Assembly: GCF_029537395.1 (NCBI RefSeq)
Contig: NZ_CP120677.1
Span: forward strand, 2,108,566-2,132,565
DNA: 24,000 nucleotides
Direction: 5' to 3'
From: Tissierella sp. Yu-01
GTDB lineage: Bacteria; Bacillota; Clostridia; Tissierellales; Tissierellaceae
The translations under genes and the position numbers were made by a program. Positions 1 to 23,304 of this stretch are shown in pieces. The notes beneath the pieces were generated by a model. It worked only from the letters and a program-made list of their open reading frames with translations, was not told the origin of the DNA and ran no database searches. Position 1 is the stretch's first letter. Every line of letters begins with the position of its first letter.

Positions 1-312
1 ACCTTTTTCAATCAATGTAGCTTTTAATTCATCTCTTAATTTCAAGCCTTCTTTAATAGATGCAAAGAATCTATCTTTATCAAAGTTTGCATTTGTAATT
101 GTCATAAATAAACCGTCTATTATAAATCTATCTAAACCAGGCATATTATATCCGATTTCATCAGCTTTAACGCCTAGAACAGAAATACCTTTTAATGTAT
201 AAATCATTAAGTCTTGTAAATTTGCTACTTCGCTTGTCTTACCACATACTCCAACTTTTGTACAACCTTTACCGCCAGCTGTTTCCTGGCATTGATAACA
301 AAACATACTCAT
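1..312 (-). CDS. hcp: Hybrid-cluster protein / hydroxylamine reductase, N-terminal 104 codons (gene runs off the window start)
   Basis: Hand translation of the minus strand from ATG at 312: [69 protein letters not shown]... The N-terminal Cys cluster [15 protein letters not shown] is the recognisable Hcp (prismane) signature. RBS AAGAGGAGGA is the complement of 321-330. It is absent from the ORF track. Confidence 0.85.
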
Positions 313-377
313 TTAGTAAATCCTCCTCTTATTCGTTTAATTATAGTCTTATTATATAGTCTTACTTGACATATGTC

Positions 378-393
378 GGTAACATGTGTTACC
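378..393. promoter_or_regulatory. Perfect 16-bp palindrome GGTAAC-ATGT-GTTACC, candidate CRP/FNR-family (HcpR-type) operator upstream of hcp
   Basis: Seen directly. On the minus strand exactly 21 nt separate the palindrome from a TATAAT hexamer (...GTTACC gacatatgtcaagtaagacta TATAAT). That geometry fits a class-II (about -41.5) activator site. A second copy of the same palindrome lies at 6083-6098. Confidence 0.55.
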
Positions 394-627: not shown

Positions 628-2625
628 ATGACAATAAAAAAGAAGTTACTATTATCATCAAGTTTGCTAATCTTATTAGCATTTACTATTATTTTTATAT
701 TTGTTTTAACACAATTTATACAAAGTAATGAAAGGGAAGAATTTAAGTATCTAGATACTTTATCAACTTCCATAATGATGGATTTACAGACGCAGATGGA
801 CAATACTCTAATATCAGTTAAAAGTATGGCAAATAATCCTGACATACAAAGACTTTTTTATGAGCGTAATCGTGAAGGTCTTTCGGATTTATTACTACCT
901 GTATATGAAACAATTAAATCCGAGGTAGCACAATTTCAATTTCACTTACCTGACTCAACATCATTTCTTAGGCTTCATAGTCCAGCTAAATTTGGAGATT
1001 CCTTAAAGGACTTTAGAATCACTGTTAACACAGCTAACGAACAATTAGTTGATGCTATAGGTATTGAAGAGGGTGTTGCAGGATATGGTTTAAGAGTAGT
1101 TGTACCTATGTTTTATCAAGACCAGCACATCGGCTCAGTAGAGTATGGAAATGATTTTGGCACAAATTATGTGAATAATATTAAAGAAAAATTCGGACTT
1201 GAGAATTTTCTATATAGATATCCTTCAGACAATGTAGATGGTAATTCACTTTTAGCTTCAACAATGGAAAATGATGAATACCTGATAAGTGATGAAAATT
1301 ATAATAAGATCCAATTGGGTGAACCAATATTTGAAGTTACCAGGGATCCGAACATTGGTATACTACTGATACCAAATGCTGACTTTCAAGGCGAAATTAC
1401 TTCATATACAAAATTAATTATTGATCGTTCAGAAGTTGTAGCGAGCGCTAAAAACATGAGTACAAATCTATTTGTAATTTTCTTTATTTCACTAATTCTA
1501 ATGGTATTATTATTAAGTACTCTCTTGAATTTTAATGTTTTCAAGCCTATAGCCGCTGTTACTGCTATTATTAATAAACAATCCAATTTAGATTTTACAT
1601 TTGATGAAAAATCTGAGATGTCAAAATATATAAAGCGTGCAGATGAAATTGGTATAATGTCCACAGCTTTATATAAAATGAAAAACAGCGTTAGAGAATT
1701 TATTATTAAAACCTCTGATACCTCAGAGTTAGTTGCAGCTTCAGCAGAAGAGCTTAATGCAACTTCTCAACAATCTGCCATTGCATCAAATGAAGTTGCC
1801 AAAGCAATCGAAGAGATTGCAAATGGTGCAAGTGAACAAGCTAGAGATGCAGAAGTTTCCTTTTCTAATGTAGAAGATATGGAAACATTACTTGAAAAGA
1901 ATAGACAGTTTCTTGATGAACTAAATAATGCAACAGATAACATTAATAATCAAAAAGAAGCAGGATTTCAAATCCTTAAAGAATTAATACAAAAGACAAA
2001 TCAAAACAATGAAGCGTCTCAAATAGTTTATGAAACTATAGTTAAGAATAATGAAAGTGCTGAAAAAATTGAAGCTGCGAGTGAAATGATTAATAGTATT
2101 TCTGATCAAACCAATCTTTTAGCTCTAAATGCAGCCATAGAAGCTGCTAGAGCCGGTGAATCTGGTAAAGGATTCGCTGTAGTAGCAGAAGAAATAAGAA
2201 AGCTTGCAGAACAGTCGAATAGCTTTACTAATGATATAAAAGTAGTAATAGAAGAGCTTAAATCCAATTCTCAAAATTTATTCGGCAAAGTACAAGAAGT
2301 AGCGTCTATAGTGGATTCTCAAACAGAAAGCGTAAAAGAAACAGAGACAAAATTTATTTTGATAGCTGAAGCAATAGATTTAGTAAGATCAGTTATAGAG
2401 AAGCTTAATGACTCGGAAAAATTAATAAGTGAAAATAAAACTACTCTGTTGAATAATATACAGAATTCAACCTTAATCTCAGAAGAAAACGCAGCAGGAA
2501 CACAAGAAGCTTCAGCTTCCGTAGAAGAATTATCAGCAAATATTGTAGAGATATCTAATTCTAGTGAAGGATTAGCTAGTATAGCAGAAGATTTGCAAAT
2601 ACTGATACAGCAATTTAAGATTTAA
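628..2625 (+). CDS. Methyl-accepting chemotaxis protein (N-terminal TM, extracytoplasmic Cache-like sensor, second TM, HAMP, MCP signalling domain)
   Basis: 665-aa ORF. Two hydrophobic segments (about res 7-29 and 289-311) flank a roughly 250-aa sensor region. The C-terminus carries the conserved MCP hairpin motif [49 protein letters not shown] lies upstream. An extended -10 TGaTATAAT sits at 587-595. Confidence 0.92.
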
Positions 2626-2633
2626 TTAAATTA

Positions 2634-2656
2634 GCCCCCAACCTTTGGTTGGGGGC
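2634..2656. terminator. GC-rich hairpin terminator between convergent genes
   Basis: GCCCCCAACC-ttt-GGTTGGGGGC is a perfect 10-bp stem, followed by GTTTATT on the plus strand. It lies 8 nt after the MCP stop and 5 nt beyond the stop of the convergent minus-strand gene. Confidence 0.8.
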
Positions 2657-2661
2657 GTTTA

Positions 2662-2904
2662 TTAATAATCTATTCCTGCTGCCTTGATTCTTTCTGGATA
2701 GTTAACTGAACAAGGTGTTACTCCATATACCATATTGCAATGTGGACATTTTGTCTCTAAATGAGTCATTTCAAACTCCTCATCACATTCAATACATTTT
2801 ACCTTAACTCCTGGCGGCATAGGTCTAGTATTAAATCCCATCATTCTTATTTTATCTACTACTTGTTTTCCATCTCCAAAACTTCCTGTACAACCATCAT
2901 GCAT
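2662..2904 (-). CDS. Small zinc-ribbon protein (80 aa), unknown function
   Basis: The ORF track gives 2662..2937. I prefer the internal ATG at 2904 (MHDGCTGSF...) because AAGGAGGA sits 7 nt upstream of it. Two CxxC pairs (CIEC ... CPHC) suggest a zinc ribbon. Confidence 0.55.
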   Translation of the reverse strand: MHDGCTGSFGDGKQVVDKIRMMGFNTRPMPPGVKVKCIECDEEFEMTHLETKCPHCNMVYGVTPCSVNYPERIKAAGIDY

Positions 2905-3062: not shown

Positions 3063-4070
3063 TTAGTTATTCACTGATTTAAGTTGCTTTCCTGCTCTCA
3101 AGTCACTTCTCATACCTTGAATAATTGAATCCATCTTTTCTAATTCAGTTAATATGGATTTCTCTTCTTTACTTGTTTCAATTATCTTAGATATTCCACC
3201 ATTTTTAATTACAATTCTCTTATCTGCAATTAATGCTAATGTTGGGTCATGAGTAGCCATTAGAACTATCTTATCCTTGCTGACTAATAGGTCTAAAGCT
3301 TTCTTTCTATCTATACCTGCGTTTTCTATTTCATCTATAAGTACTATAGGTGATGAACTTAAAATGGCAGTATCTGCAATCATCAATGCTCTTGACTGAC
3401 CACCACTTAATGCAGTTACAGGTGTATCTAGATCAAACTTCTCACCAGCTAAATTATTGGCTGCTTCTATTATTTTCTGTGTAGTTTCTTCTACATCTTC
3501 AACTAATCTACTTTGAGCATGTAGTTCTAAGAACTCCTTTACAGTTAAATCCATTACAAAGTTCATATTTTGTGATAATTGTGCTACAAGCTTATTATTA
3601 GATGAGAATCTCCATTTCATATCTGGAACTTCTCCATTAATTAGTATAGTTCTACCAGTTGGTGTATCATTTTGAGCTGTCCATTCTATATCTGCTAGGA
3701 GCCTACTCTTACCTGAACCTGTAGGACCTACAATGGATATAATCTCAGATTTATTAATGATAAATTCCTTAAACCCCTCAGAATTCTTTGATTTATCATG
3801 GCCTGGTAGAATTGTTAAGGATTCAATCCCTACTTCATCCTTTATACCTAAAAATTCTTTCATTTGATTTATAAAAGCTTCAAGATCATCTTTTAATCTA
3901 TCTTTATCAATAGCCCAATCTTCAATATCTTCCTCAGAAAAATGATTTAGATACTCATCGAAAGTTTTTTCCTCGAAACCTCTTACATCAAGCTTATTAT
4001 CTTCAAAGTACGTCTCAACAAAAGGATATTTATTAATTAATTCATTAATAGTTAGATTATTCATAGTCAT
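3063..4070 (-). CDS. ABC-type ATPase (single nucleotide-binding domain) with an N-terminal extension of about 100 aa; no cognate permease nearby
   Basis: Walker A GPTGSGKS, signature LSGGQ, Walker B LIDEIE and H-loop ATHD are all present. The start is ambiguous (GTG 4073, ATG 4070, ATG 4064) and overlaps the stop of the upstream gene, implying translational coupling. Confidence 0.85.
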   Translation of the reverse strand: MTMNNLTINELINKYPFVETYFEDNKLDVRGFEEKTFDEYLNHFSEEDIEDWAIDKDRLKDDLEAFINQMKEFLGIKDEVGIESLTILPGHDKSKNSEGFKEFIINKSEIISIVGPTGSGKSRLLADIEWTAQNDTPTGRTILINGEVPDMKWRFSSNNKLVAQLSQNMNFVMDLTVKEFLELHAQSRLVEDVEETTQKIIEAANNLAGEKFDLDTPVTALSGGQSRALMIADTAILSSSPIVLIDEIENAGIDRKKALDLLVSKDKIVLMATHDPTLALIADKRIVIKNGGISKIIETSKEEKSILTELEKMDSIIQGMRSDLRAGKQLKSVNN

Positions 4071-4758
4071 CACCTAAATCCATCTTTCTTACATTACCCA
4101 TTTGGAAAGCTTCACCTATTCTCGTTTCACCAAGACAGTAAGAACACATTGCAGCAGGCATTGGGAATCTTAACTCCATACCTTGAACTGAATCAATGTC
4201 CTTCTCCTTATCAATTAGTAATGTACTTAGCTCAAATGCTCCTTGTCCAGTTAAACCATTAATATGGATTGTCATGGCTCTAGGATTTACAGAGCTTACC
4301 TTAGAAGCAAACACTTCTCTTTCAGCCTGGGAAACTATATCCCCTTTAGTAATGACTACAATATCAGCTGATTTTAACATCGGACCAATTTTCTTAGGTG
4401 TATTTATACCTGATAAATTATCTATAACACATACACCCTTGATTTCCTTAATATAAGGTGAACATCTATTACAAAGACCCGCCGATTCGGTTATTAACAA
4501 ATCTAAACCTAATTTTAAACCCCATTGTACAACTTCTTCAATATTAGATGCGAAGAAATGATCTGGACATAGGGCTCCTGATAAACCTTTCTTTACTGGT
4601 ATACCTGCCTTCTCATATAAAATATCATCATCTGTATAAAGGCAATCAAATTTTACTACACCTACTGAAATATTTCTTTGTTTTAGTGCATCTATTGTTT
4701 TTAATATAATTGAGGTCTTTCCTGATGAAGGAGGACCTGAAAATACTACTAAATTCAT
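4057..4758 (-). CDS. G3E-family (HypB/UreG/CobW-like) P-loop GTPase, putative metallochaperone
   Basis: 233-aa ORF with P-loop GPPSSGKT, an ESAGL switch-like motif followed by CNRCSP, and a TKGD (NKxD-type) specificity motif. Additional Cys pairs are present (CPDH, and a C-terminal CSYC). RBS AGGAGGAAAG lies upstream. Confidence 0.75.
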   Translation of the reverse strand: MNLVVFSGPPSSGKTSIILKTIDALKQRNISVGVVKFDCLYTDDDILYEKAGIPVKKGLSGALCPDHFFASNIEEVVQWGLKLGLDLLITESAGLCNRCSPYIKEIKGVCVIDNLSGINTPKKIGPMLKSADIVVITKGDIVSQAEREVFASKVSSVNPRAMTIHINGLTGQGAFELSTLLIDKEKDIDSVQGMELRFPMPAAMCSYCLGETRIGEAFQMGNVRKMDLGDDYE

Positions 4759-4770
4759 TTGTCTTTCCTC

Positions 4771-6009
4771 CTAAATAGCATCATGAAATAACTTTTCACT
4801 TTTTCTAATTAAACTTCCAATATCATTGTTATTTATATAATCCCAGCCAAGCCACATGAATTTTTGATCTTTCTCCAATCCATTATCAACCTCTGGATGT
4901 GTTGATGGGAAATGTCCATTTGATGAAAGTATCTCTCCAACTTCCTTAGAGAAAAAGAAATCAACAAATCTTTTTGTCCTTTCTTTACTAGATTTCTTAG
5001 AAAGAAGAAATATAGGGCTAATAATTGCTCCATCCTCTGGCCAAACAGTCTTTAGGGGGCTGTTACCTCTTGCCATCTTTGTAAAGAAATATGGCATAAT
5101 AGTTATGGCCGGTATCCCTGAGTTAGTTCTCTTAGTAGGTGACTTAACCATTTCAGCTGGATGCATACTTCTTAGAAGATTTCTACCTAAGCTTGTTATT
5201 CCGTCTTCACCATATCTTTGATGAAGGTGCAATAACAGTGCATTAAATAAATCTAAATCTCTCATTGGAAGTGATATAGAAGACTCAAATTCTGGTTTTA
5301 ATAAATCTTCCCAAGACTTAGGCATTTCTCTACCATTAAGCTCATCTACATTAACCATAAATACCGCTGGAACAACACCAATTATAGAGTATTGCTTTAA
5401 TGGGTCCTTCAAATCTATATAGTCATTATCGAAATCCTTATTTAATTTTTCTAGACCTGTAATATCTTCAAATACTCCTAATTCCTTGTATTTGCCCATT
5501 AACTCCTTATCAAAGAACAAGTCAAAACCTGCAGACATAAATAAATCTGATAAATCATCTGGATTACCAGTCTTTATTCTATCAACAATCCAGTCTAGAC
5601 CTAGATTAGCTGATTTTAATTCATAGTTTACAGTAAATCCAAAGCTATCCTTATTCTGATCCATCCAAGCATTGAATCCTTCTAATAAAGGTATCCTTAT
5701 GGGACATGGTAGTACTCCGTCTATTCTTATATCTCCGTCAATCTCCTGTTTTGATGCTGCCAATGCTTCATCTACTGAAACTCTATTTTGTTCTATTGAT
5801 TCAACTAATTTTTGTTCAAATAGTTCAAGGTTAACTTTCTTAGTTTTACATGCCATTTCAAGTGATATAGTCTTACCCATAAGCTTTCTCATCTTCTCAT
5901 TAGCAAGTTGTTCAAAACCGTTAGCTACAAATATACCCAATGTTTCTGGATATTTCTCTGTTATGTCAAATACTTTATCCTTTATATCAAAATATTTGTT
6001 CATGCCCAT
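4771..6009 (-). CDS. Fusion protein: N-terminal DUF1858 (hybrid-cluster-protein-associated domain) plus a periplasmic-binding-protein-like (ABC substrate-binding fold) domain, with no signal peptide
   Basis: Residues about 5-75 (FDIKDKVFDITEKYPETLGIFVANGFEQLANEKMRKLMGKTISLEMACKTKKVNLELF) look like DUF1858/ScdA_N. The remainder resembles class-II solute-binding proteins. There is no hydrophobic leader or lipobox. An alternative start is ATG 6003. Confidence 0.7.
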   Translation of the reverse strand: MGMNKYFDIKDKVFDITEKYPETLGIFVANGFEQLANEKMRKLMGKTISLEMACKTKKVNLELFEQKLVESIEQNRVSVDEALAASKQEIDGDIRIDGVLPCPIRIPLLEGFNAWMDQNKDSFGFTVNYELKSANLGLDWIVDRIKTGNPDDLSDLFMSAGFDLFFDKELMGKYKELGVFEDITGLEKLNKDFDNDYIDLKDPLKQYSIIGVVPAVFMVNVDELNGREMPKSWEDLLKPEFESSISLPMRDLDLFNALLLHLHQRYGEDGITSLGRNLLRSMHPAEMVKSPTKRTNSGIPAITIMPYFFTKMARGNSPLKTVWPEDGAIISPIFLLSKKSSKERTKRFVDFFFSKEVGEILSSNGHFPSTHPEVDNGLEKDQKFMWLGWDYINNNDIGSLIRKSEKLFHDAI

Positions 6010-6082
6010 CCTCCAATTTCTCCTTTTAAAATAATCCCGACTTATTTACTATATTATAATACAATAAAAGAAAAAAATAGTC

Positions 6083-6098
6083 GGTAACCAATGTTACC
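6083..6098. promoter_or_regulatory. Second perfect palindrome GGTAAC-CAAT-GTTACC, candidate HcpR-type operator for the 6009..3063 operon
   Basis: The half-sites and the 5' flank (gTCGGTAAC) match those at 378-393. On the minus strand it lies 21-24 nt upstream of TGTATTATAAT (-10) and about 80 nt upstream of the start codon. Confidence 0.55.
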
Positions 6099-6200
6099 AA
6101 CCAAAAAAATTGCCTCAATTTAAATAAGTATATCAAAAGACATAATAATGTGGACTTATGTAGATACTTTGTATATACTATATATGAGAGGTGATAAATT

Positions 6201-6440
6201 ATGTTTACTACAATTCAAAAGTGGGGTAATAGTCAAGCCGTTAGAATACCTAAGGCTATTCTAGAAATGGCTAATCTAAGGGAAAATGACAATGTAGAAT
6301 TAAGAGTTCATGAAGGCAATCTACTAATTATTCCTGTTAAAAAACATAAATCCCTAGAGCAACGAATTGCCGAATATGAAGGAGAATACCATTGTAGCGA
6401 ATGGGAAACTAGTGATCCTATAGGAAAAGAGGTACTATAA
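6201..6440 (+). CDS. mazE: MazE/PemI-type antitoxin (AbrB/SpoVT swapped-hairpin fold)
   Basis: The sequence MFTTIQKWGNSQAVRIPKAILEMANL... carries the classic KWGNS.A.RIP antitoxin motif. RBS GAGAGGTGA lies upstream. The stop overlaps the toxin start (TAATG). Confidence 0.9.
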   Translation: MFTTIQKWGNSQAVRIPKAILEMANLRENDNVELRVHEGNLLIIPVKKHKSLEQRIAEYEGEYHCSEWETSDPIGKEVL

Positions 6441-6772
6441 TGACATATATTCCAGAACAAGGAGATATTATATTTATAGAATTTAATCCTCAGGTCGGGC
6501 ATGAGCAAAAAGGTAAAAGACCGGCCTTAGTTGTAAGTAATTACACATTTAACAAATTCACTAAATTGGCAATGCTATGCCCAATTACCAATACGGATAG
6601 AAGCTTTCCTTTGCATGTTAAACTAGATGAAAGAACGAAAACTACAGGAGTCATCATGTGTGAACAGGTAAAATCCCTAGATTACAATGCCAGAGCAATA
6701 TCCTTTTATGAAAGATCACCAGAAGATATAGTAGCAGAAGTTAAAGATGTTTTACTTGGATTCATTGAATAA
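6440..6772 (+). CDS. mazF: MazF/PemK-type endoribonuclease toxin
   Basis: 110 aa: YIPEQGDIIFIEFNPQVGHEQKGKRPALVVS...CPIT...DQVKSLDY-like motifs align by eye with E. coli MazF/ChpB. Confidence 0.9.
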   Translation: MTYIPEQGDIIFIEFNPQVGHEQKGKRPALVVSNYTFNKFTKLAMLCPITNTDRSFPLHVKLDERTKTTGVIMCEQVKSLDYNARAISFYERSPEDIVAEVKDVLLGFIE

Positions 6773-6839
6773 TCATAGTTCCTAGAATTCGTTGCTTATG
6801 GAAATATTGGGGTATAATAAATTCCAAAGGAGTGATTTT

Positions 6840-7226
6840 ATGGAGATAACCTATGAAAAGTCAACGACTAAACTATTTGATGAAGCTATAGAAAGTATCA
6901 AGAAAGAACTTCAGGAAAGAAAATTTGGTGTACTTTGGGAATTAAACTTCAAAGAAAAACTTGCAGAGCATGGAATAGAATTTAAAAATAATTTTAAGAT
7001 TTTGGAAGTTTGTAATCCTCAAAAGGCTAATGAAGTTTTATCAAAACATATTGAGGTTGGATATCTTCTTCCATGTAAAATGGTAGTATATGAAAATGAA
7101 GGAAAAGTATTTATAGGAACTGCAAAACCTGAAAAGCTAATGGGAATGATGGGATATGCTGATCTAAGCAATATAGCTTCTGAAGTTGAGTGGATTTTAA
7201 TTGAAGCTATTGACGCAGCAGTATAA
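6840..7226 (+). CDS. DUF302 domain protein
   Basis: The ORF track starts at TTG 6792. ATG 6840 is preferred because AAGGAG lies 8 nt upstream. Size (128 aa) and motifs (FGVLWELNF...ILEVCNPQKA...LLPCKMVVYE) fit DUF302. Confidence 0.7.
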   Translation: MEITYEKSTTKLFDEAIESIKKELQERKFGVLWELNFKEKLAEHGIEFKNNFKILEVCNPQKANEVLSKHIEVGYLLPCKMVVYENEGKVFIGTAKPEKLMGMMGYADLSNIASEVEWILIEAIDAAV

Positions 7227-9558: not shown

Positions 9559-10143
9559 TTATATGGTAGTTATTGTAACCTCATTACTTAGTTTCATATT
9601 TATTGCAATAGCCATCAATGAACAAGCTATCACAAAAAATGCTCTATATTCCTGTCCAAAAACTAATAGTAGAATTTCCAAAAATAAGACCAAGGTAATA
9701 ATTTCGTTTTTCTTTCTACTACACCTTTCTATTTCACTGGCTGTTTTAGGTCTGTTTATATTAACTATTGAATCTGTTAGATATATTTTGATGACAGAAT
9801 AAATTAGAGAAATTATTCCTATTATCAGTTGCATTTGCTTTGAAAATATTATCGCAGGAACTATAATAAGTATGTATACCAGCATTGTTAACATCAGGCA
9901 TTTACCATATGTTTTACAGTGGAATCCCCCCGTATATCTTTTTACAGATATAAAAACCACCATAAATATAATGGTAAACTCTATAGTTTCTAGTAAAGTT
10001 CCTGCGAGTAATAGCAACAATATAGTAATTAGATTATTTAACAGTAATTCTAATCCATAGGAACATATATCAATATCTTCCTTTTCTATTATCTGATTTT
10101 GTTCTAATAAAAAAACTATGCTATTTATAAGTTTCTTTAGCAT
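9559..10143 (-). CDS. agrB: AgrB-family membrane endopeptidase (AgrD-processing enzyme)
   Basis: 194-aa polytopic protein. The motif VKRYTGGFHCKTYGKC carries the conserved R..GG.H-x6-C catalytic His/Cys pair with the same 7-residue spacing as S. aureus AgrB H77/C84. RBS AAGGAGG lies upstream. Confidence 0.88.
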   Translation of the reverse strand: MLKKLINSIVFLLEQNQIIEKEDIDICSYGLELLLNNLITILLLLLAGTLLETIEFTIIFMVVFISVKRYTGGFHCKTYGKCLMLTMLVYILIIVPAIIFSKQMQLIIGIISLIYSVIKIYLTDSIVNINRPKTASEIERCSRKKNEIITLVLFLEILLLVFGQEYRAFFVIACSLMAIAINMKLSNEVTITTI

Positions 10144-10711: not shown

Positions 10712-11650
10712 TTATCTTATTCTTACTCTTTCTCCATAATCTCTAGAATGAATATAATAATCATCTGGATTCATAGTTTTAACAGAGTGTACAGGCTCAA
10801 AACTTAACCCAAGATCATCAGGGCTTACTGATACAGACGGATGTGCGCTATAAGTTGAATGACCATATCGGATTACCATAGCCGCTTCTGGAACCCTACC
10901 TGATTTTGTAAATGCACAGTATGCTCTTCCTCTCATTGCATAATATGATCCCTCCCGTAAGTCAAATGTAGTTTCCATAGCATGAATTTCATCAGTTGGA
11001 TAGAAATCATATATTTCAGTATTTCGATCGTCATCGACATCATAGTAATAAATTCTATGATATGATAAGTCATCATCAAAATACATACCCTCACTTACTA
11101 CAGCACCAATGATATCCGTTTTTGTTACTACAGGCATCACATCCCATTCCCAGTCAAAGCGTACTCTAAATGTTGTTGTTCTATCATCTCGATCATATTC
11201 ATGTCTGCTAAAATGTACTTCGCAATATAAATCTGAAAATATTCCCTGAATTGACACATCAGTGCCATCGTAATCCTTAATCTTTTCAATTCTCTCTTTT
11301 GTATAACCAAGCATTTCTAATTCTTTATCGCTTTTATTTTTTAATTCAATTATTATATTATCAACATCAAACTCTTTAATTTTTTTTATATCAGCTGAAC
11401 TCAAACCTTGTTGTCTTAATGTAGCTTCGCTTTTTTTCTTCAAGTTCATTAAGGCATCATACTCATTCACCTTAAAACTGGTTATAAATTTGTCGTAACC
11501 ATTTTCTGCCGCAATTTCATCTTGTTTAATTAGCTCCTCTCGGCTTAGACTTTTTAATGTAGGCATGCTTTCTGCATAAGTAGTAACTGGTGTTGCAAAT
11601 ACTATTAACGTAAATACAGCTAAAAGTAAAGATAAGATTTTTTTCTTCAT
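10712..11650 (-). CDS. Secreted protein of unknown family (312 aa), cargo of the agrD1 operon
   Basis: Signal peptide MKKKILSLLLAVFTLIVFATPVTTYA/ES. An internal duplicated helical motif is present (QGLSSADIKKIKEFDVD / MLGYTKERIEKIKDYDGTD). The C-terminal half is rich in D, Y and R. The start lies 18 nt after the agrD1 stop, with RBS AAGGGAG. Confidence 0.8.
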   Translation of the reverse strand: MKKKILSLLLAVFTLIVFATPVTTYAESMPTLKSLSREELIKQDEIAAENGYDKFITSFKVNEYDALMNLKKKSEATLRQQGLSSADIKKIKEFDVDNIIIELKNKSDKELEMLGYTKERIEKIKDYDGTDVSIQGIFSDLYCEVHFSRHEYDRDDRTTTFRVRFDWEWDVMPVVTKTDIIGAVVSEGMYFDDDLSYHRIYYYDVDDDRNTEIYDFYPTDEIHAMETTFDLREGSYYAMRGRAYCAFTKSGRVPEAAMVIRYGHSTYSAHPSVSVSPDDLGLSFEPVHSVKTMNPDDYYIHSRDYGERVRIR

Positions 11651-14568: not shown

Positions 14569-14601
14569 GTTAAACTGGTAGGTTTTTTGGTTAAACTGGC
14601 A
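14569..14601 (-). promoter_or_regulatory. LytTR-type direct-repeat boxes (copy D) upstream of agrD2; the distal box overlaps the agrC stop codon
   Basis: GTTAAACTGGTA-ggttttttg-GTTAAACTGGC with a 21-bp period. The last agrC codons ..TTG CCA GTT TAA are themselves the distal box. The extended -10 TGcTATGCT is conserved downstream. Confidence 0.65.
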
Positions 14602-15913
14602 ATTCACCATTCAATGATACAGCCATATATAATTTAAACTCTTCATTTAAGACCTCATGATCAATAAATCCGTTATATTTATTTGCTACATCTTCTAAAA
14701 TAAATAGACCATATCCATGGCTATCTTTATCTTTCTTAGATGTAATCCCCCTACGAATTTGTACATCCTTGTTGATACTATTACTTATTTCAAAATTAAG
14801 ATAATCCTTCTTAGGGTTAATAACTATTTCTATCCTTCTCTTAGATTTGTCCTCTATCTTTAAACATGCCTCTATGGCATTATCTATGCTATTAAAGAGC
14901 AGGGAGCTAAAATCCGGTGGATTTATTGGAATATCAGGAGGAATCACTGCTTTTACTTTAAAGGCTATATCATTGTTTACAGCTTCAATTCTCTTTTGAT
15001 TTAAAACCATATCTGCTATTTCATTTCCTGTTCTTATGGTTATAGGAAAGTTATCCATATTCTCTATGATTACGTTGATATACTCATTTATTCTATTATT
15101 TGAACTAGTGGATGCCAGATTCTTAATATTTGCTAGATGATTGTTGATGTCATGTCTTATTTTCCTTATTTCTAAATTTGTCTCCTGATTCATTTTTAAA
15201 TATCTTCCTGTAGCCTTGTAGTGCATATCTAATATTGCTCTTTCTTTTTGTTTGATATAATGTTTGTTTAACTCTGTTAAAAACAGATATACCACCCCAT
15301 TTATAAATAGGAAGGTACCACTGATAAAAATCAAAAGAATATCTAAGCCTTCTACCTCACCAGCTACTCTATTTAGATCAAACAAAAATATCATGCTAAT
15401 AGCTGATATCATATAAATTAGCCATACAAAAAGATTGTATTTTCTGGGTAGAATATTTTTATGAGGCTTTACATACTCCGCTATTATTTTTATCAACTTA
15501 TATTTAATCAACTTAACAATAAGTCCTGTTATTAGTCTAGCTGTTCCGTGCAATAAAACCATTTCAGCAGCAGGTATTTTAAATATAAATCTTAGTAGAT
15601 TCATTGTCAGGATTTCAGCTGCTATTTGGATAAGATTAAATATCAGATTATAGAATATCTTATCATTCAAATTACCTTTAAAAAGTAAAGAATATACAAA
15701 ATATATACTAACTCCAATTACCATCCTATAGGATTGTCTAATTTCTAGGATTGTCAGTACAAAAACTACTATAGAAATTAAAAATGACAAAACAACATAT
15801 ACTTTTAACTTTATTTTTTCATTTAGTCCTAATATATGTTTAAAAAACATAGTAAATAATATGGCTTCTACAAAACACCAAAAATACTCAAATCCTAAAT
15901 AAAAATGTTCCAT
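14591..15913 (-). CDS. agrC: AgrC-like (HPK10 family) membrane sensor histidine kinase
   Basis: The N-terminal half of about 200 aa has 6-7 hydrophobic segments. H-box IRKIRHDINNHLANI, N-box LLFNSIDNAIEA and G-box SHGYGLFILEDV are present. There is no HAMP or PAS domain. Confidence 0.85.
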   Translation of the reverse strand: MEHFYLGFEYFWCFVEAILFTMFFKHILGLNEKIKLKVYVVLSFLISIVVFVLTILEIRQSYRMVIGVSIYFVYSLLFKGNLNDKIFYNLIFNLIQIAAEILTMNLLRFIFKIPAAEMVLLHGTARLITGLIVKLIKYKLIKIIAEYVKPHKNILPRKYNLFVWLIYMISAISMIFLFDLNRVAGEVEGLDILLIFISGTFLFINGVVYLFLTELNKHYIKQKERAILDMHYKATGRYLKMNQETNLEIRKIRHDINNHLANIKNLASTSSNNRINEYINVIIENMDNFPITIRTGNEIADMVLNQKRIEAVNNDIAFKVKAVIPPDIPINPPDFSSLLFNSIDNAIEACLKIEDKSKRRIEIVINPKKDYLNFEISNSINKDVQIRRGITSKKDKDSHGYGLFILEDVANKYNGFIDHEVLNEEFKLYMAVSLNGELPV

Positions 15914-15923
15914 CCTGTCCCTC

Positions 15924-16628
15924 CTATGAAGTAAAAAAGGCCTTTTTTACTTCAGATATCTTATATCTTGAAACCTGTAATACTTCCCCATTGTCTAGCT
16001 CAATGGTTTCCTTGTCTATCCTCTTTACAAAGTTAATGTTAACCATCATCCCCCTATAGATACTAACAAATCCTTTACTGGAGACTACTTTTTCTATTTC
16101 TTTGAAAACTGTTATAGTAGTTATATATGTATCTGTTAACGTTCTGATATTGACCCTTCTATTAACCATGTTAAAGTAAAGAATTTCTGAAATTGCCAAT
16201 TTTATAGTTCCTTCTTTTGTTTTAAACTCATATCTTGTACTATTTTCTTGTAACCTTTTTAAAATGTCTTCTAAAACTGCATATATTTCTTCATCAAAAT
16301 ATGATTTCCTGATAAATCTAAAAGTATTAAGTTCAAAGACCTTATATACTTCCTCATCTAAAGAAGTTAAAAATATAAGTATAAAATTATTATCTATTTC
16401 CCTAATTACCCTTGCTGCTTTGATGCCATTCAATCTTGGCATATCTATATCGAAAAATATCACATCATACCCAATACCATTACGTTTTGCTTCTCTAACT
16501 ATTTCTTCCCCATTGTTATATTCATCAATATCAACTTTATTTTGATTATCCCTAAAAAAGGAATTAACTTTTAATCTTAATCTCTCCATAAAAATATTAT
16601 CATCCTCACAAATTGCAACTTTTACCAT
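15924..16628 (-). CDS. agrA: AgrA-like response regulator (REC plus LytTR DNA-binding domain)
   Basis: REC motifs are present (VAICEDD, FFDIDMPRLNG). The C-terminal region of about 100 aa has the LytTR pattern (..ISEILYFNMVNRRVNIRT...FVSIYRGMMVNINFVKRID...LQVSRYK). RBS AAGGAGGGG lies upstream. An extended -10 TGaTATAAT is the complement of 16675-16683. Confidence 0.88.
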   Translation of the reverse strand: MVKVAICEDDNIFMERLRLKVNSFFRDNQNKVDIDEYNNGEEIVREAKRNGIGYDVIFFDIDMPRLNGIKAARVIREIDNNFILIFLTSLDEEVYKVFELNTFRFIRKSYFDEEIYAVLEDILKRLQENSTRYEFKTKEGTIKLAISEILYFNMVNRRVNIRTLTDTYITTITVFKEIEKVVSSKGFVSIYRGMMVNINFVKRIDKETIELDNGEVLQVSRYKISEVKKAFFTS

Positions 16629-21779: not shown

Positions 21780-22070
21780 TATATTCAAAATTATCTAAAA
21801 GTTTTGAAGGAGATAAAAATACTTGATTACATCGGAAGAGAGCTGGTGGTTGGTGCAAACCAGTGTTGTATGGTATATAATAATCACTCCTGAACTGCAC
21901 AGCTGAAATTTTAGTAGGCAATGCCGGAATTATTTCGCCACCGTTATTAGGCTAGAATTATTTGTTGATTCGAAGAGTCAATTTACGTGAGTAAATTGAA
22001 AATTAGAGTGGTACCACGGATAATCCCCGTCTCTTAGGCTTAATGCTTTTGAGTCGGGTTTTTTTATAAT
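21780..22070 (+). promoter_or_regulatory. T-box riboswitch leader (tRNA-sensing transcription attenuator)
   Basis: Ordered conserved elements are present: AG-box AGAGAG (21837-42), distal-loop TTGGTGCAAA (21850-59), GAA-containing specifier region (21892-21900), AGTA box (21913-16), F-box CCGTTA (21941-46), and T-box AATTAGAGTGGTACCACGG (22001-19). The terminator is CCCGTCTC...GAGTCGGG plus T7 (22026-22066). Confidence 0.85.
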
Positions 22071-22110: not shown

Positions 22111-23304
22111 ATGGATAGTTTATTGGCTATTACACTAGTACTTGTTGTATTTGCATTAGGGGACTTTATATCTTTTAAGACTAAGTCCATAGTTTCAATG
22201 ATGTTTGTTGCATCGGTAGTATTTTTAGTAGGATTCTGGCTAGGTATGCCAGCAACTATATTCCAAGATGCTCAATTAACAGGATTCGGTGCACTCATGA
22301 TTGGTTTCTTAATTACACATATGGGAACTCTTTTAAGTTTCGAAGACCTAAAAAAACAATGGAAAACAGTACTTATTGCTTTAGCAGCAGTAGTTGGTAT
22401 AGGAATATTTTTACTATTAGTAGGCTCACCTATATTAGGTAGAGAATATGCAATATCAGCTGCACCACCAATTGCTGGAGGAGTTGTAGCAGCAATTATC
22501 ATGGGAGATGCTGCGGCAGCAAAAGGTTTAGAATCTATTGGGGTATATGTTACTCTTTTAGTAGTAGTTCAAGGTTTCTTTGGATATCCAGTAGCATCAT
22601 ATATGTTAAATAAGGAAGCTAAAAAACTACTTAAGAATTTTGATCCGAGTAAGGCAAAGGTAGCGGCAGTAGGAGCAGGTGCTGGAGTTGGAGTTGCCGA
22701 GCAACCTGTTAAAGCAAAGAAAAAGCTTATACCTACATTGTCAAAGGACTTACAAACACCATATATCCTTCTAGCAAAATTAGGATTAGTAGCTATTTTA
22801 GGCTTTAAATTAGCAGCCCTAACTAATGGAATAGTTCATCAATATGTAATGTGTTTATTTGTTGGAGTTATAGCAAGAGAAATAGGATTCTTAGAAGAAA
22901 ATATTATGACTAAAGCTAATGCTCAAGGCCTAGCAATGGTTGGACTTATGGCAGTAATATTTGGAAACTTAGCAACAGCAACACCAGAGATGATTGCTTC
23001 ACTAGCATTCCCACTTATAGGATCTTTGGTATTAGGTGTTATTGGCATAGGAATATTCGCTGGATTAGCAGGTAAATTATTAAAAATGTCTATTCCAATG
23101 GCAATTGCAATAGGTACTTCTGCTTTATTTGGTTTCCCTGGAACTTTCATTATTTCAAATGAAGTTGCTAATGCAAATGGTAAAACAGAGGAAGAAAGAC
23201 AAATTATACTTGATGAAATATTACCTAAGATGTTAGTAGCTGGTTTTATTACAGTAACAATAGCATCGGTAGTATTAGCAGGTGTTATGGCACCATTAAT
23301 TTAG
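22111..23304 (+). CDS. Polytopic membrane protein, probable amino-acid/metabolite transporter (family not recognised)
   Basis: 397 aa with at least 10 hydrophobic segments. It is Gly/Ala-rich with a central amphipathic linker (KKLLKNFDPSKAKVAAVGAGAGVGVAEQPVKAKKK). RBS AAGGAGGA lies upstream, and it sits directly downstream of the T-box. Confidence 0.75.
   Translation: MDSLLAITLVLVVFALGDFISFKTKSIVSMMFVASVVFLVGFWLGMPATIFQDAQLTGFGALMIGFLITHMGTLLSFEDLKKQWKTVLIALAAVVGIGIFLLLVGSPILGREYAISAAPPIAGGVVAAIIMGDAAAAKGLESIGVYVTLLVVVQGFFGYPVASYMLNKEAKKLLKNFDPSKAKVAAVGAGAGVGVAEQPVKAKKKLIPTLSKDLQTPYILLAKLGLVAILGFKLAALTNGIVHQYVMCLFVGVIAREIGFLEENIMTKANAQGLAMVGLMAVIFGNLATATPEMIASLAFPLIGSLVLGVIGIGIFAGLAGKLLKMSIPMAIAIGTSALFGFPGTFIISNEVANANGKTEEERQIILDEILPKMLVAGFITVTIASVVLAGVMAPLI

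Follow-up and report, generated by a model that had tools for sequence, protein, structure and literature searches.

The closest described counterpart of the sites reported here is the regulon of HcpR2, a branch of the CRP/FNR family in Clostridium, Bacteroides, Thermotogales, and Treponema, for which the operator consensus GTAACnnnnGTTAC was predicted (Rodionov et al. 2005, PLoS Comput Biol, PMC1274295). In Clostridium, hcp, frdX, and a few hypothetical genes have HcpR2 sites 74–134 nucleotides (nt) upstream of their start codons (Table S1 of PMC1274295), and the same motif also occurs 19–46 nt before the start codons of hcpR (PMC1274295). The motif of the C. thermocellum regulator is TGTTG-N6-CAACA (profile 5 of PMC1274295), and the presence of proline or serine at the position of Glu181 of CRP has been proposed to determine specificity (PMC1274295). 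The window analyzed here, a stretch of 24,000 nt from Tissierella sp. Yu-01 (NZ_CP120677.1, positions 2,108,566–2,132,565 of the forward strand), contains two perfect palindromes of the HcpR2 type, one in front of hcp, which encodes the hybrid cluster protein (hydroxylamine reductase), and one in front of a nearby cluster of probably four genes that encode soluble proteins.

The experimental basis for regarding such promoters as inducible by nitric oxide (NO) comes from two members of the CRP/FNR family. The HcpR of C. difficile has been shown to be an NO-responsive activator of hcp, with an approximately 200-fold induction that is lost in the mutant (PMC12915319), and a study on P. gingivalis likewise reports an NO-responsive activation of hcp by HcpR (PMC12750200). 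Their operators differ from those in the window and read GGAT-N-T-NN-A-N-ATCC in C. difficile and TGTCGC-N4-GCGACA in P. gingivalis (both from PMC1274295). The direct targets reported for these regulators are only frdX-hcp or hcp, and the present cluster is not among the genes treated in the work on C. difficile (PMC12915319).

Both palindromes in the window are very probably operators of one HcpR2-type CRP/FNR activator, which would induce hcp together with the adjacent metal-chaperone-like cluster under NO or nitrite stress. At hcp, the site adds one more ordinary case of the motif predicted in 2005 (PMC1274295). The novelty lies in the second target: an uncharacterized four-gene soluble system, present in several families of Firmicutes and preceded by either of two operator dialects, is now placed in the predicted HcpR regulon. 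By virtue of the shared operators, a widespread protein family thus receives a concrete, if predicted, assignment to nitrosative-stress defense. The features that carry this reading are the following.

1..312, minus strand: 5' part of hcp (hybrid cluster protein/hydroxylamine reductase), which runs off the start of the window (Prismane, 6.7e-22; NF003658, 2.7e-34)

378..393, minus strand: operator 1, a 16-bp palindrome that reads GGTAACACATGTTACC on the hcp strand, with the core GTAAC-N4-GTTAC at 379–392; predicted site of an HcpR2-type CRP/FNR regulator, centered at about −41.5 from the presumed transcription start of hcp

6083..6098, minus strand: operator 2, a 16-bp palindrome that reads GGTAACATTGGTTACC on the strand of the operon; at the equivalent class II position and likewise a predicted site of the HcpR2 type

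An earlier note on this DNA had described two perfect palindromes with common half-sites and a common 5' flank, and they are indeed present: GGTAACATGTGTTACC is located at 378–393 and GGTAACCAATGTTACC at 6083–6098, each preceded by GTC on the plus strand. The note had also named GTAAC-N4-GTTAC as the HcpR motif, which is correct, as this is the core of the HcpR2 consensus (PMC1274295), and it had rightly recognized the open reading frame (ORF) downstream of site 1 (312..1, minus strand) as hcp, whose full-length version of 554 amino acids is present in a contig of the same organism (Logan contig L081). Both sites match the 14-bp inverted repeat of HcpR2-type operators perfectly, and both lie in a promoter region, tens of nucleotides 5' of a start codon; the core is found 67–80 nt before the ATG of hcp (position 312) and, at site 2, 75–88 nt upstream of position 6009, where the ORF begins. 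The full pattern GGTAAC-N4-GTTACC has exactly two matches in the window even if two mismatches are allowed, so that the note was justified in stating that there is no other such palindrome. The same search of the shuffled window yields a mean of 0.33 matches. A third perfect match to the core does not exist in the window, and its only match with one mismatch (at 11583) lies inside an ORF.

The motif recurs in related genomes. A scan of species-representative genomes for relatives of the first gene of the cluster (gene 1) yielded 80 loci, which together with their 10-kb flanks comprise 1.31 Mb; they belong mostly to Tissierellia but include also Oscillibacter, Lachnospiraceae, and Pelosinus, and the closest locus is that of 'Firmicutes bacterium FC7' (90% identity). 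The core occurs 92 times in this set, versus about 1.5 occurrences expected from base composition. Within 400 nt 5' of a gene, the distance that defines "upstream" in these counts, 51 copies precede the binding-protein gene (gene 1) and 40 precede hcp, and the single remaining copy is located in a coding region. A perfect core is found upstream of 40 of the 41 hcp genes and of 51 of the 76 orthologs of gene 1; the other orthologs have GTTG-N6-CAAC at an equal spacing. The motif is therefore maintained at the promoters of orthologs and scarce at other positions, and the abundance at non-promoter positions that the earlier note had named as grounds for abandoning its proposal is not observed in these loci. 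It is mainly this concentration of 91 of the 92 cores in front of two genes that identifies the pair in the window as more than a product of chance.

In the loci of the Tissierellia type, the genes for the binding protein, a GTPase, an ATP-binding cassette (ABC) ATPase, and a small cysteine-rich protein follow each other on one strand, and hcp comes after a gap of 0–6 kb; gene 1 and hcp each have a perfect core in front of them. The synteny of operon and hcp extends over approximately 40 Tissierellia genomes. The operon is thus not "unrelated" to hcp, as the earlier note had put it, but a syntenic partner with the same operator.

Activators of the CRP/FNR family that act at class II promoters bind at about −41.5, where they take the place of a good −35 element. 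The two promoters in the window have the following elements.

374..379, minus strand: weak −35-like hexamer of hcp, CCGACA, with a 17-nt spacer to TATAAT; overlaps the promoter-proximal edge of operator 1

351..356, minus strand: −10 hexamer of hcp, TATAAT, 22 nt after GTTAC; transcription would start near 344

6079..6084, minus strand: weak −35-like hexamer of the operon, CCGACT; overlaps the proximal edge of operator 2

6056..6061, minus strand: most likely −10 hexamer of the operon, TATTAT, 22 nt after GTTAC; transcription would start near 6049

On the coding (minus) strand, both sites take the form GGTAAC-N4-GTTACC-GAC, and the GTC flank that they share on the plus strand is explained by the weak −35-like hexamer that overlaps the edge of the palindrome. 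The distance between palindrome and −10 hexamer, previously given as 21–24 nt, amounts to 21 nt for hcp (TATAAT, 356..351) and to either 21 nt (TATTAT) or 24 nt for the operon, where a TATAAT at 6058..6053 overlaps TATTAT and begins 3 nt further on. Of these alternatives, TATTAT is preferred because the spacing of 22 nt after GTTAC is fixed among 90 distinct hcp and operon promoters that were aligned on the palindrome. At this distance, the −10 hexamer is represented by its T in 81, its A in 80, and its final T in 80 of the 90 promoters. The proximal CGA is maintained as a vestigial −35 element (C in 62, G in 83, and A in 86 promoters), and the distal flank T-T/C-G is also conserved. The half-sites themselves are invariant and show no compensatory changes, and the central loop varies.

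The fixed spacing supports the class II position that the earlier note had proposed. Assuming a transcription start 7 nt after the −10 hexamer, the center of the palindrome would be at about −41.5, and since the −35 element that the site overlaps at this position, CCGACA or CCGACT, is a poor one, the promoters are probably activator-dependent. They resemble FNR- and CRP-dependent class II promoters in the 14-bp dyad with a 4-bp center, in its location at about −41.5 as judged from the −10 hexamers, and in the replacement of the −35 element, but differ in the half-site, which is GTAAC rather than the TTGAT of FNR or the TGTGA of CRP. The similarity to the HcpR2 regulon comprises the core motif, the principal target hcp, the distance to the start codon, and the link between the motif and a proline at position 181 of the regulator; the sites of Tissierellia differ, however, in carrying the conserved extension TyG...CGA (compare PMC1274295). 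On the plus strand, a GATAAT is located 23 nt from the hcp-side palindrome and is a candidate for a second −10 element, which could make this site bidirectional.

A different operator precedes the orthologous operon in 23 loci of Lachnospiraceae and Oscillibacter. These loci lack the GTAAC palindrome and have instead a single GTTG-N6-CAAC each, located 90–110 nt before gene 1; the pattern has 32 matches, versus 7.2 ± 2.1 in shuffles. It corresponds to the C. thermocellum-type motif (PMC1274295), which is absent from the window. In all 23 cases, an extended −10 element follows exactly 22 nt downstream, the same spacing as in the GTAAC promoters, which documents a turnover of the motif within a conserved promoter architecture.

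The regulators encoded next to these sites differ accordingly. Among the 80 loci, a CRP/FNR gene adjoins the operon in two: in Pelosinus (L053), it is located directly upstream, with a GTAAC site in between, and in Muricomes (L051), directly downstream. In two metagenomic contigs (L094 and L127), a CRP/FNR gene is divergent from hcp and adjacent to a perfect GTAAC site, and such a site also adjoins the CRP/FNR gene of a third contig (L161). The four regulators next to GTAAC sites (L053, L094, L127, and L161) share the recognition helix RPSLSRE, with proline at CRP position 181, whereas the regulator next to GTTG-N6-CAAC (L051) has RSSLTRE, with serine at this position. The split between proline and serine by motif is exactly the specificity rule proposed in 2005 (PMC1274295). 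The fixed spacing to the −10 element and the matching helix residues therefore indicate that operator and regulator helix change together while the promoter architecture is kept, which makes this switch a clean natural example of the co-evolution of regulator and operator. In the Muricomes locus (L051, 12964–15431), the hcpR-like gene is also divergent from a 502-amino-acid gene with the domain order DUF438-hemerythrin-PAS_10-DUF1858, and a second GTTG-N6-CAAC site lies between the two; DUF1858 is thus shared by two genes that each have a predicted site of the HcpR type.

Further candidates for the regulon emerge from public metagenomic contigs that were scanned for the perfect 20-mer TCGGTAAC-N4-GTTACCGA. 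The 20-mer is present in at least 80 contigs, and the 80 listed ones were examined. An NO-related gene is located beside it in 32 of them: in 29 contigs, the neighbor is hcp, the operon, the small cysteine-rich gene, or an hcpR-like gene, and in the other three it encodes a globin. The gene that adjoins the site in L097 encodes a 4Fe-4S (frdX-like) protein. The globin, a single-domain protein of 146 amino acids, is encoded approximately 80 nt downstream of the 20-mer (L086, 751–1269; L102, 6472–6993; L108, 708–1223) and is likely a further target of the same type of regulator in other organisms. By our estimate, which involves no computed background, most of the remaining listed contigs, which are rich in G and C, look like chance matches. 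In about 12 AT-rich metagenomic contigs (26% G+C), which include L139 (9556–11638), L105, L134, L144, L153, and L160, hcp and a homolog of the cysteine-rich gene directly flank a perfect 20-bp palindrome on opposite sides. Where its strand is recorded, as in L139, this homolog is divergent from hcp. The arrangement suggests that the cysteine-rich gene is a member of the regulon in its own right.

The target that is shared with hcp in the window consists of the following genes.

4771..6009, minus strand: gene 1, with an N-terminal DUF1858 (5e-17) and a C-terminal SBP_bac_6 domain (1.2e-85); ferric-binding-protein fold, cytoplasmic

4057..4758, minus strand: gene 2, a G3E-family GTPase that resembles CobW, HypB, and UreG (cobW superfamily domain, 3e-11)

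3063..4073, minus strand: gene 3, the soluble ABC-type ATPase, which has an unassigned N-terminal extension of approximately 100 amino acids; its first 17 nt overlap the end of gene 2

2662..2904, minus strand: gene 4 (probable), a cysteine-rich zinc-ribbon protein of 80 amino acids with six conserved cysteines; the real start is Met12 of the listed ORF

2634..2656, both strands: a GC-rich hairpin of 10 bp that resembles a terminator on either strand and ends the cluster (minus strand) and a chemotaxis-receptor gene (plus strand)

The cluster starts at 6009 on the minus strand, as the earlier note had it, but the operon that was described there as having three genes probably has four, because the conserved 80-amino-acid protein follows, as it does in most loci of Tissierellia. 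No curated family, informative name, or close solved structure was found for any of the four proteins. A search of the literature on DUF1858, on HcpR in combination with ABC transporters, and on the Clostridium locus tags of Table S1, with RegPrecise outside its scope, retrieved nothing on the cluster. Among the Clostridium regulon members of Table S1 itself, which include the hypothetical proteins CAC0362, CAC0758, and CAC0759, the cluster and the 80-amino-acid protein do not appear by name (PMC1274295).

Gene 1 belongs to a family of 2,594 database proteins (E ≤ 1e-10), with identities of 60–90% among the matches listed. Its AlphaFold2 model (predicted local distance difference test, 82.9) has its best match in the Protein Data Bank in P5PA, a periplasmic protein that binds pyridoxal phosphate (PLP), followed by the ferric-binding proteins FbpA, FutA, and SfuA, at about 15% identity. 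The maximum hydropathy is 1.25, and a signal peptide is not present. Gene 2 is a P-loop GTPase with cysteine and histidine in the position of a metal site, a likeness to the G3E GTPases HypB, UreG, and CobW; the aligned counterpart of its Cys-Pro-Asp-His is the Cys-Pro-His nickel site in UreG and the Cys-His in HypB. It is 79–97% identical across the 80 loci (Tissierellia, Lachnospiraceae, Oscillospiraceae, and Negativicutes), an extreme constraint that stands out against its operon partners (59–90% and 64–87%). An assignment as a nickel metallochaperone of the HypB or UreG type is rejected, however, since the scores are far below the NCBIfam cut-offs (hypB, 51.5 versus 121.2 bits; ureG, 25.6 versus 204.2 bits), and no hydrogenase, urease, or suf genes are located near the cluster. 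A reading of the N-terminal extension of gene 3 as a second DUF1858-like domain is not supported; hhalign aligns only 27 columns, with a probability of 19%, and Pfam gives no match. The ATPase of the Suf system, SufC, is an example of a soluble ABC ATPase that has no membrane partner. Gene 3 shares this property, but suf genes are absent from its vicinity.

The combination of a substrate-binding-protein fold and an ABC ATPase could point to an importer that depends on a binding protein. This interpretation is not tenable. By hydropathy, signal peptides and membrane segments are absent from all four cluster proteins, the N terminus of gene 1 being DUF1858 rather than a signal peptide, and no permease gene recurs in the 80 loci, where only the three soluble proteins do. 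The cluster is therefore not an importer. It is most likely a soluble chaperone or repair system for iron or a metallocluster, an assignment based on its mix of domains, on regulation of the NO type, and on its synteny with hcp; the absence of permease, signal peptides, and membrane segments, the ferric-binding-protein fold of gene 1, and the UreG- and HypB-like cysteine and histidine of gene 2 point in the same direction. By analogy, the repair proteins RIC, YtfE, and ScdA share with gene 1 the DUF1858 domain, which occurs also in other genes linked to the metabolism of nitrogen oxides. More tentatively, the cluster might represent a hitherto unrecognized NO-inducible cytoplasmic chaperone of anaerobic Firmicutes, controlled by HcpR through at least two operator dialects. 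The hybrid cluster of Hcp, or iron-sulfur proteins damaged by NO, could depend on it for maturation or repair.

Taken together, the sequences are consistent with a simple scheme. One dimeric HcpR2-type CRP/FNR activator, encoded elsewhere in the genome, would bind both palindromes and contact RNA polymerase in the manner of class II activators. On sensing NO or nitrite stress, the regulator would switch on hcp and the adjacent cluster; Hcp would then reduce NO, and the cluster would work alongside it as a chaperone or repair system for a metal, probably iron, or a metallocluster.

Several observations weigh against parts of this scheme. No CRP/FNR gene is present in the window, as the earlier note had stated, according to a Pfam search of all large ORFs and a phmmer search with E. 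coli CRP and two HcpR-like ORFs as queries, which covered the ORFs of at least 100 amino acids in the window and the 80 loci. Such a gene is also absent from a further 10 kb on the far side of hcp, which the same organism's Logan contig (L081) covers, and from the surrounding ±10 kb in about 55 loci of Tissierellia. The top 120 of the 464 and of the 3,300 database matches of the HcpR-like queries include no protein named after Tissierella and none that is encoded on the source contig. In one metagenomic contig (L138, 1365–1427), two perfect copies of TCGGTAACTATAGTTACCGA, 43 bp apart, are located upstream of an alanine dehydrogenase gene and beside the gene of a sigma-54 activator; the palindrome thus appears to be used there by an unrelated regulator, and its sequence is not exclusive to HcpR. 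With respect to the cluster, the best structural matches of gene 1 include not only ferric-binding proteins but also proteins that bind PLP, sugar phosphates, or polyamines. That the regulator was not located lowers the confidence in an ortholog of HcpR2 but not in the nature of the sites as operators. Its unlinked position in Tissierella would be a further difference from Clostridium, where the regulator gene usually adjoins hcp or frdX (PMC1274295). The cognate regulator, with cNMP_binding and HTH_Crp_2 domains and proline at position 181, is seen beside the same motif in other lineages, and the link of the sites in Tissierella to HcpR is inferred. Among the conserved neighbors, only genes for DJ-1/PfpI, peptidase M23, a chromate transporter, and the like recur, none of which are regulators. 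The region just beyond hcp in L081 (6736–7461, plus strand), to the left of the window, encodes OsmC, an AraC-type regulator, and an iron-siderophore ABC importer.

It is conceivable, but unlikely, that the palindromes of Tissierellia are real operators of another regulator, e.g., of a different dimeric helix-turn-helix family that has taken over the hcp regulon. The absence of a CRP/FNR gene near hcp or the operon in any locus of Tissierellia would agree with such a takeover, as would the lack of a Tissierella protein among the database matches considered and the sigma-54 activator next to the same 20-mer in L138. However, with only the top 120 matches listed for either query, this absence is weak evidence, and the motif, its 14-bp layout of 5-N4-5, and its position at −41.5 are all of the CRP/FNR type; moreover, the exact motif is adjoined by four independent CRP/FNR genes with Pro-181 in other Firmicutes. 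Less probable still is a regulator that acts as a repressor by occluding the −35 region. The sites do overlap the −35 position, and the Clostridium motif 19–46 nt before the start codons of hcpR resembles autorepression (PMC1274295), but a poor −35 element in combination with a good −10 element is the usual mark of activator dependence, the exact phasing at −41.5 is kept in 90 plus 23 promoters, and the HcpR of C. difficile activates hcp (PMC12915319).

A function of the palindromes at the RNA level, as hairpins or intrinsic terminators, instead of as DNA that binds a protein is very improbable, even though the copy at 6083–6098 with its flanks (6070–6110, minus strand) folds into a hairpin of 11 bp (−14 kcal/mol, z = −6.6) that is followed by a run of U, and in 15 loci (9311–9940 in L003 and 14 similar cases) the site is preceded on its own strand, at a distance of about 10 nt, by the end of a DJ-1/PfpI gene. 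Neither site combines such a hairpin and U-run with the end of a transcription unit on the same strand: the genes nearest to site 2 on its upstream side are encoded on the opposite strand, and a U-run is missing from the hcp copy. Invariant half-sites around a variable loop, without compensatory changes, argue against selection for an RNA structure, and the fixed distance to the −10 element would be needless for a terminator. In the 15 loci with the DJ-1/PfpI gene, the operator may double as its terminator, in a secondary role. Two chance palindromes without function would be the least credible explanation. At two mismatches, two matches also arise in 3 of 100 shuffles of the window, but both matches in the window are perfect, and their sequence and spacing are maintained at orthologous promoters in dozens of genomes; the conservation data exclude chance.

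Two gene groups border on the predicted operators. Between the cluster and hcp, and divergent from the latter, lies the gene of a chemotaxis receptor with a dCache_3 domain (628–2625, plus strand). It was considered as a member of the regulon and rejected, since the arrangement is found only in the window and in its closest relative (L001). On the other side, a mazE/mazF toxin-antitoxin pair (6201–6772, plus strand) and a DUF302 gene (6792–7226, plus strand) are divergent from the operon promoter; the palindrome is located 103 nt before mazE, and this arrangement is not conserved in related loci.

Elsewhere in the window, a T-box leader (21795–22037, plus strand; Rfam RF00230, 117.6 bits), the only Rfam match, is located upstream of the ORF at 22111–23304. 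Finally, the regions at 9559–10143 and 14591–16628 (both minus strand) contain an agr-like quorum-sensing set that consists of AgrB, a GHKL histidine kinase, and a LytTR response regulator.

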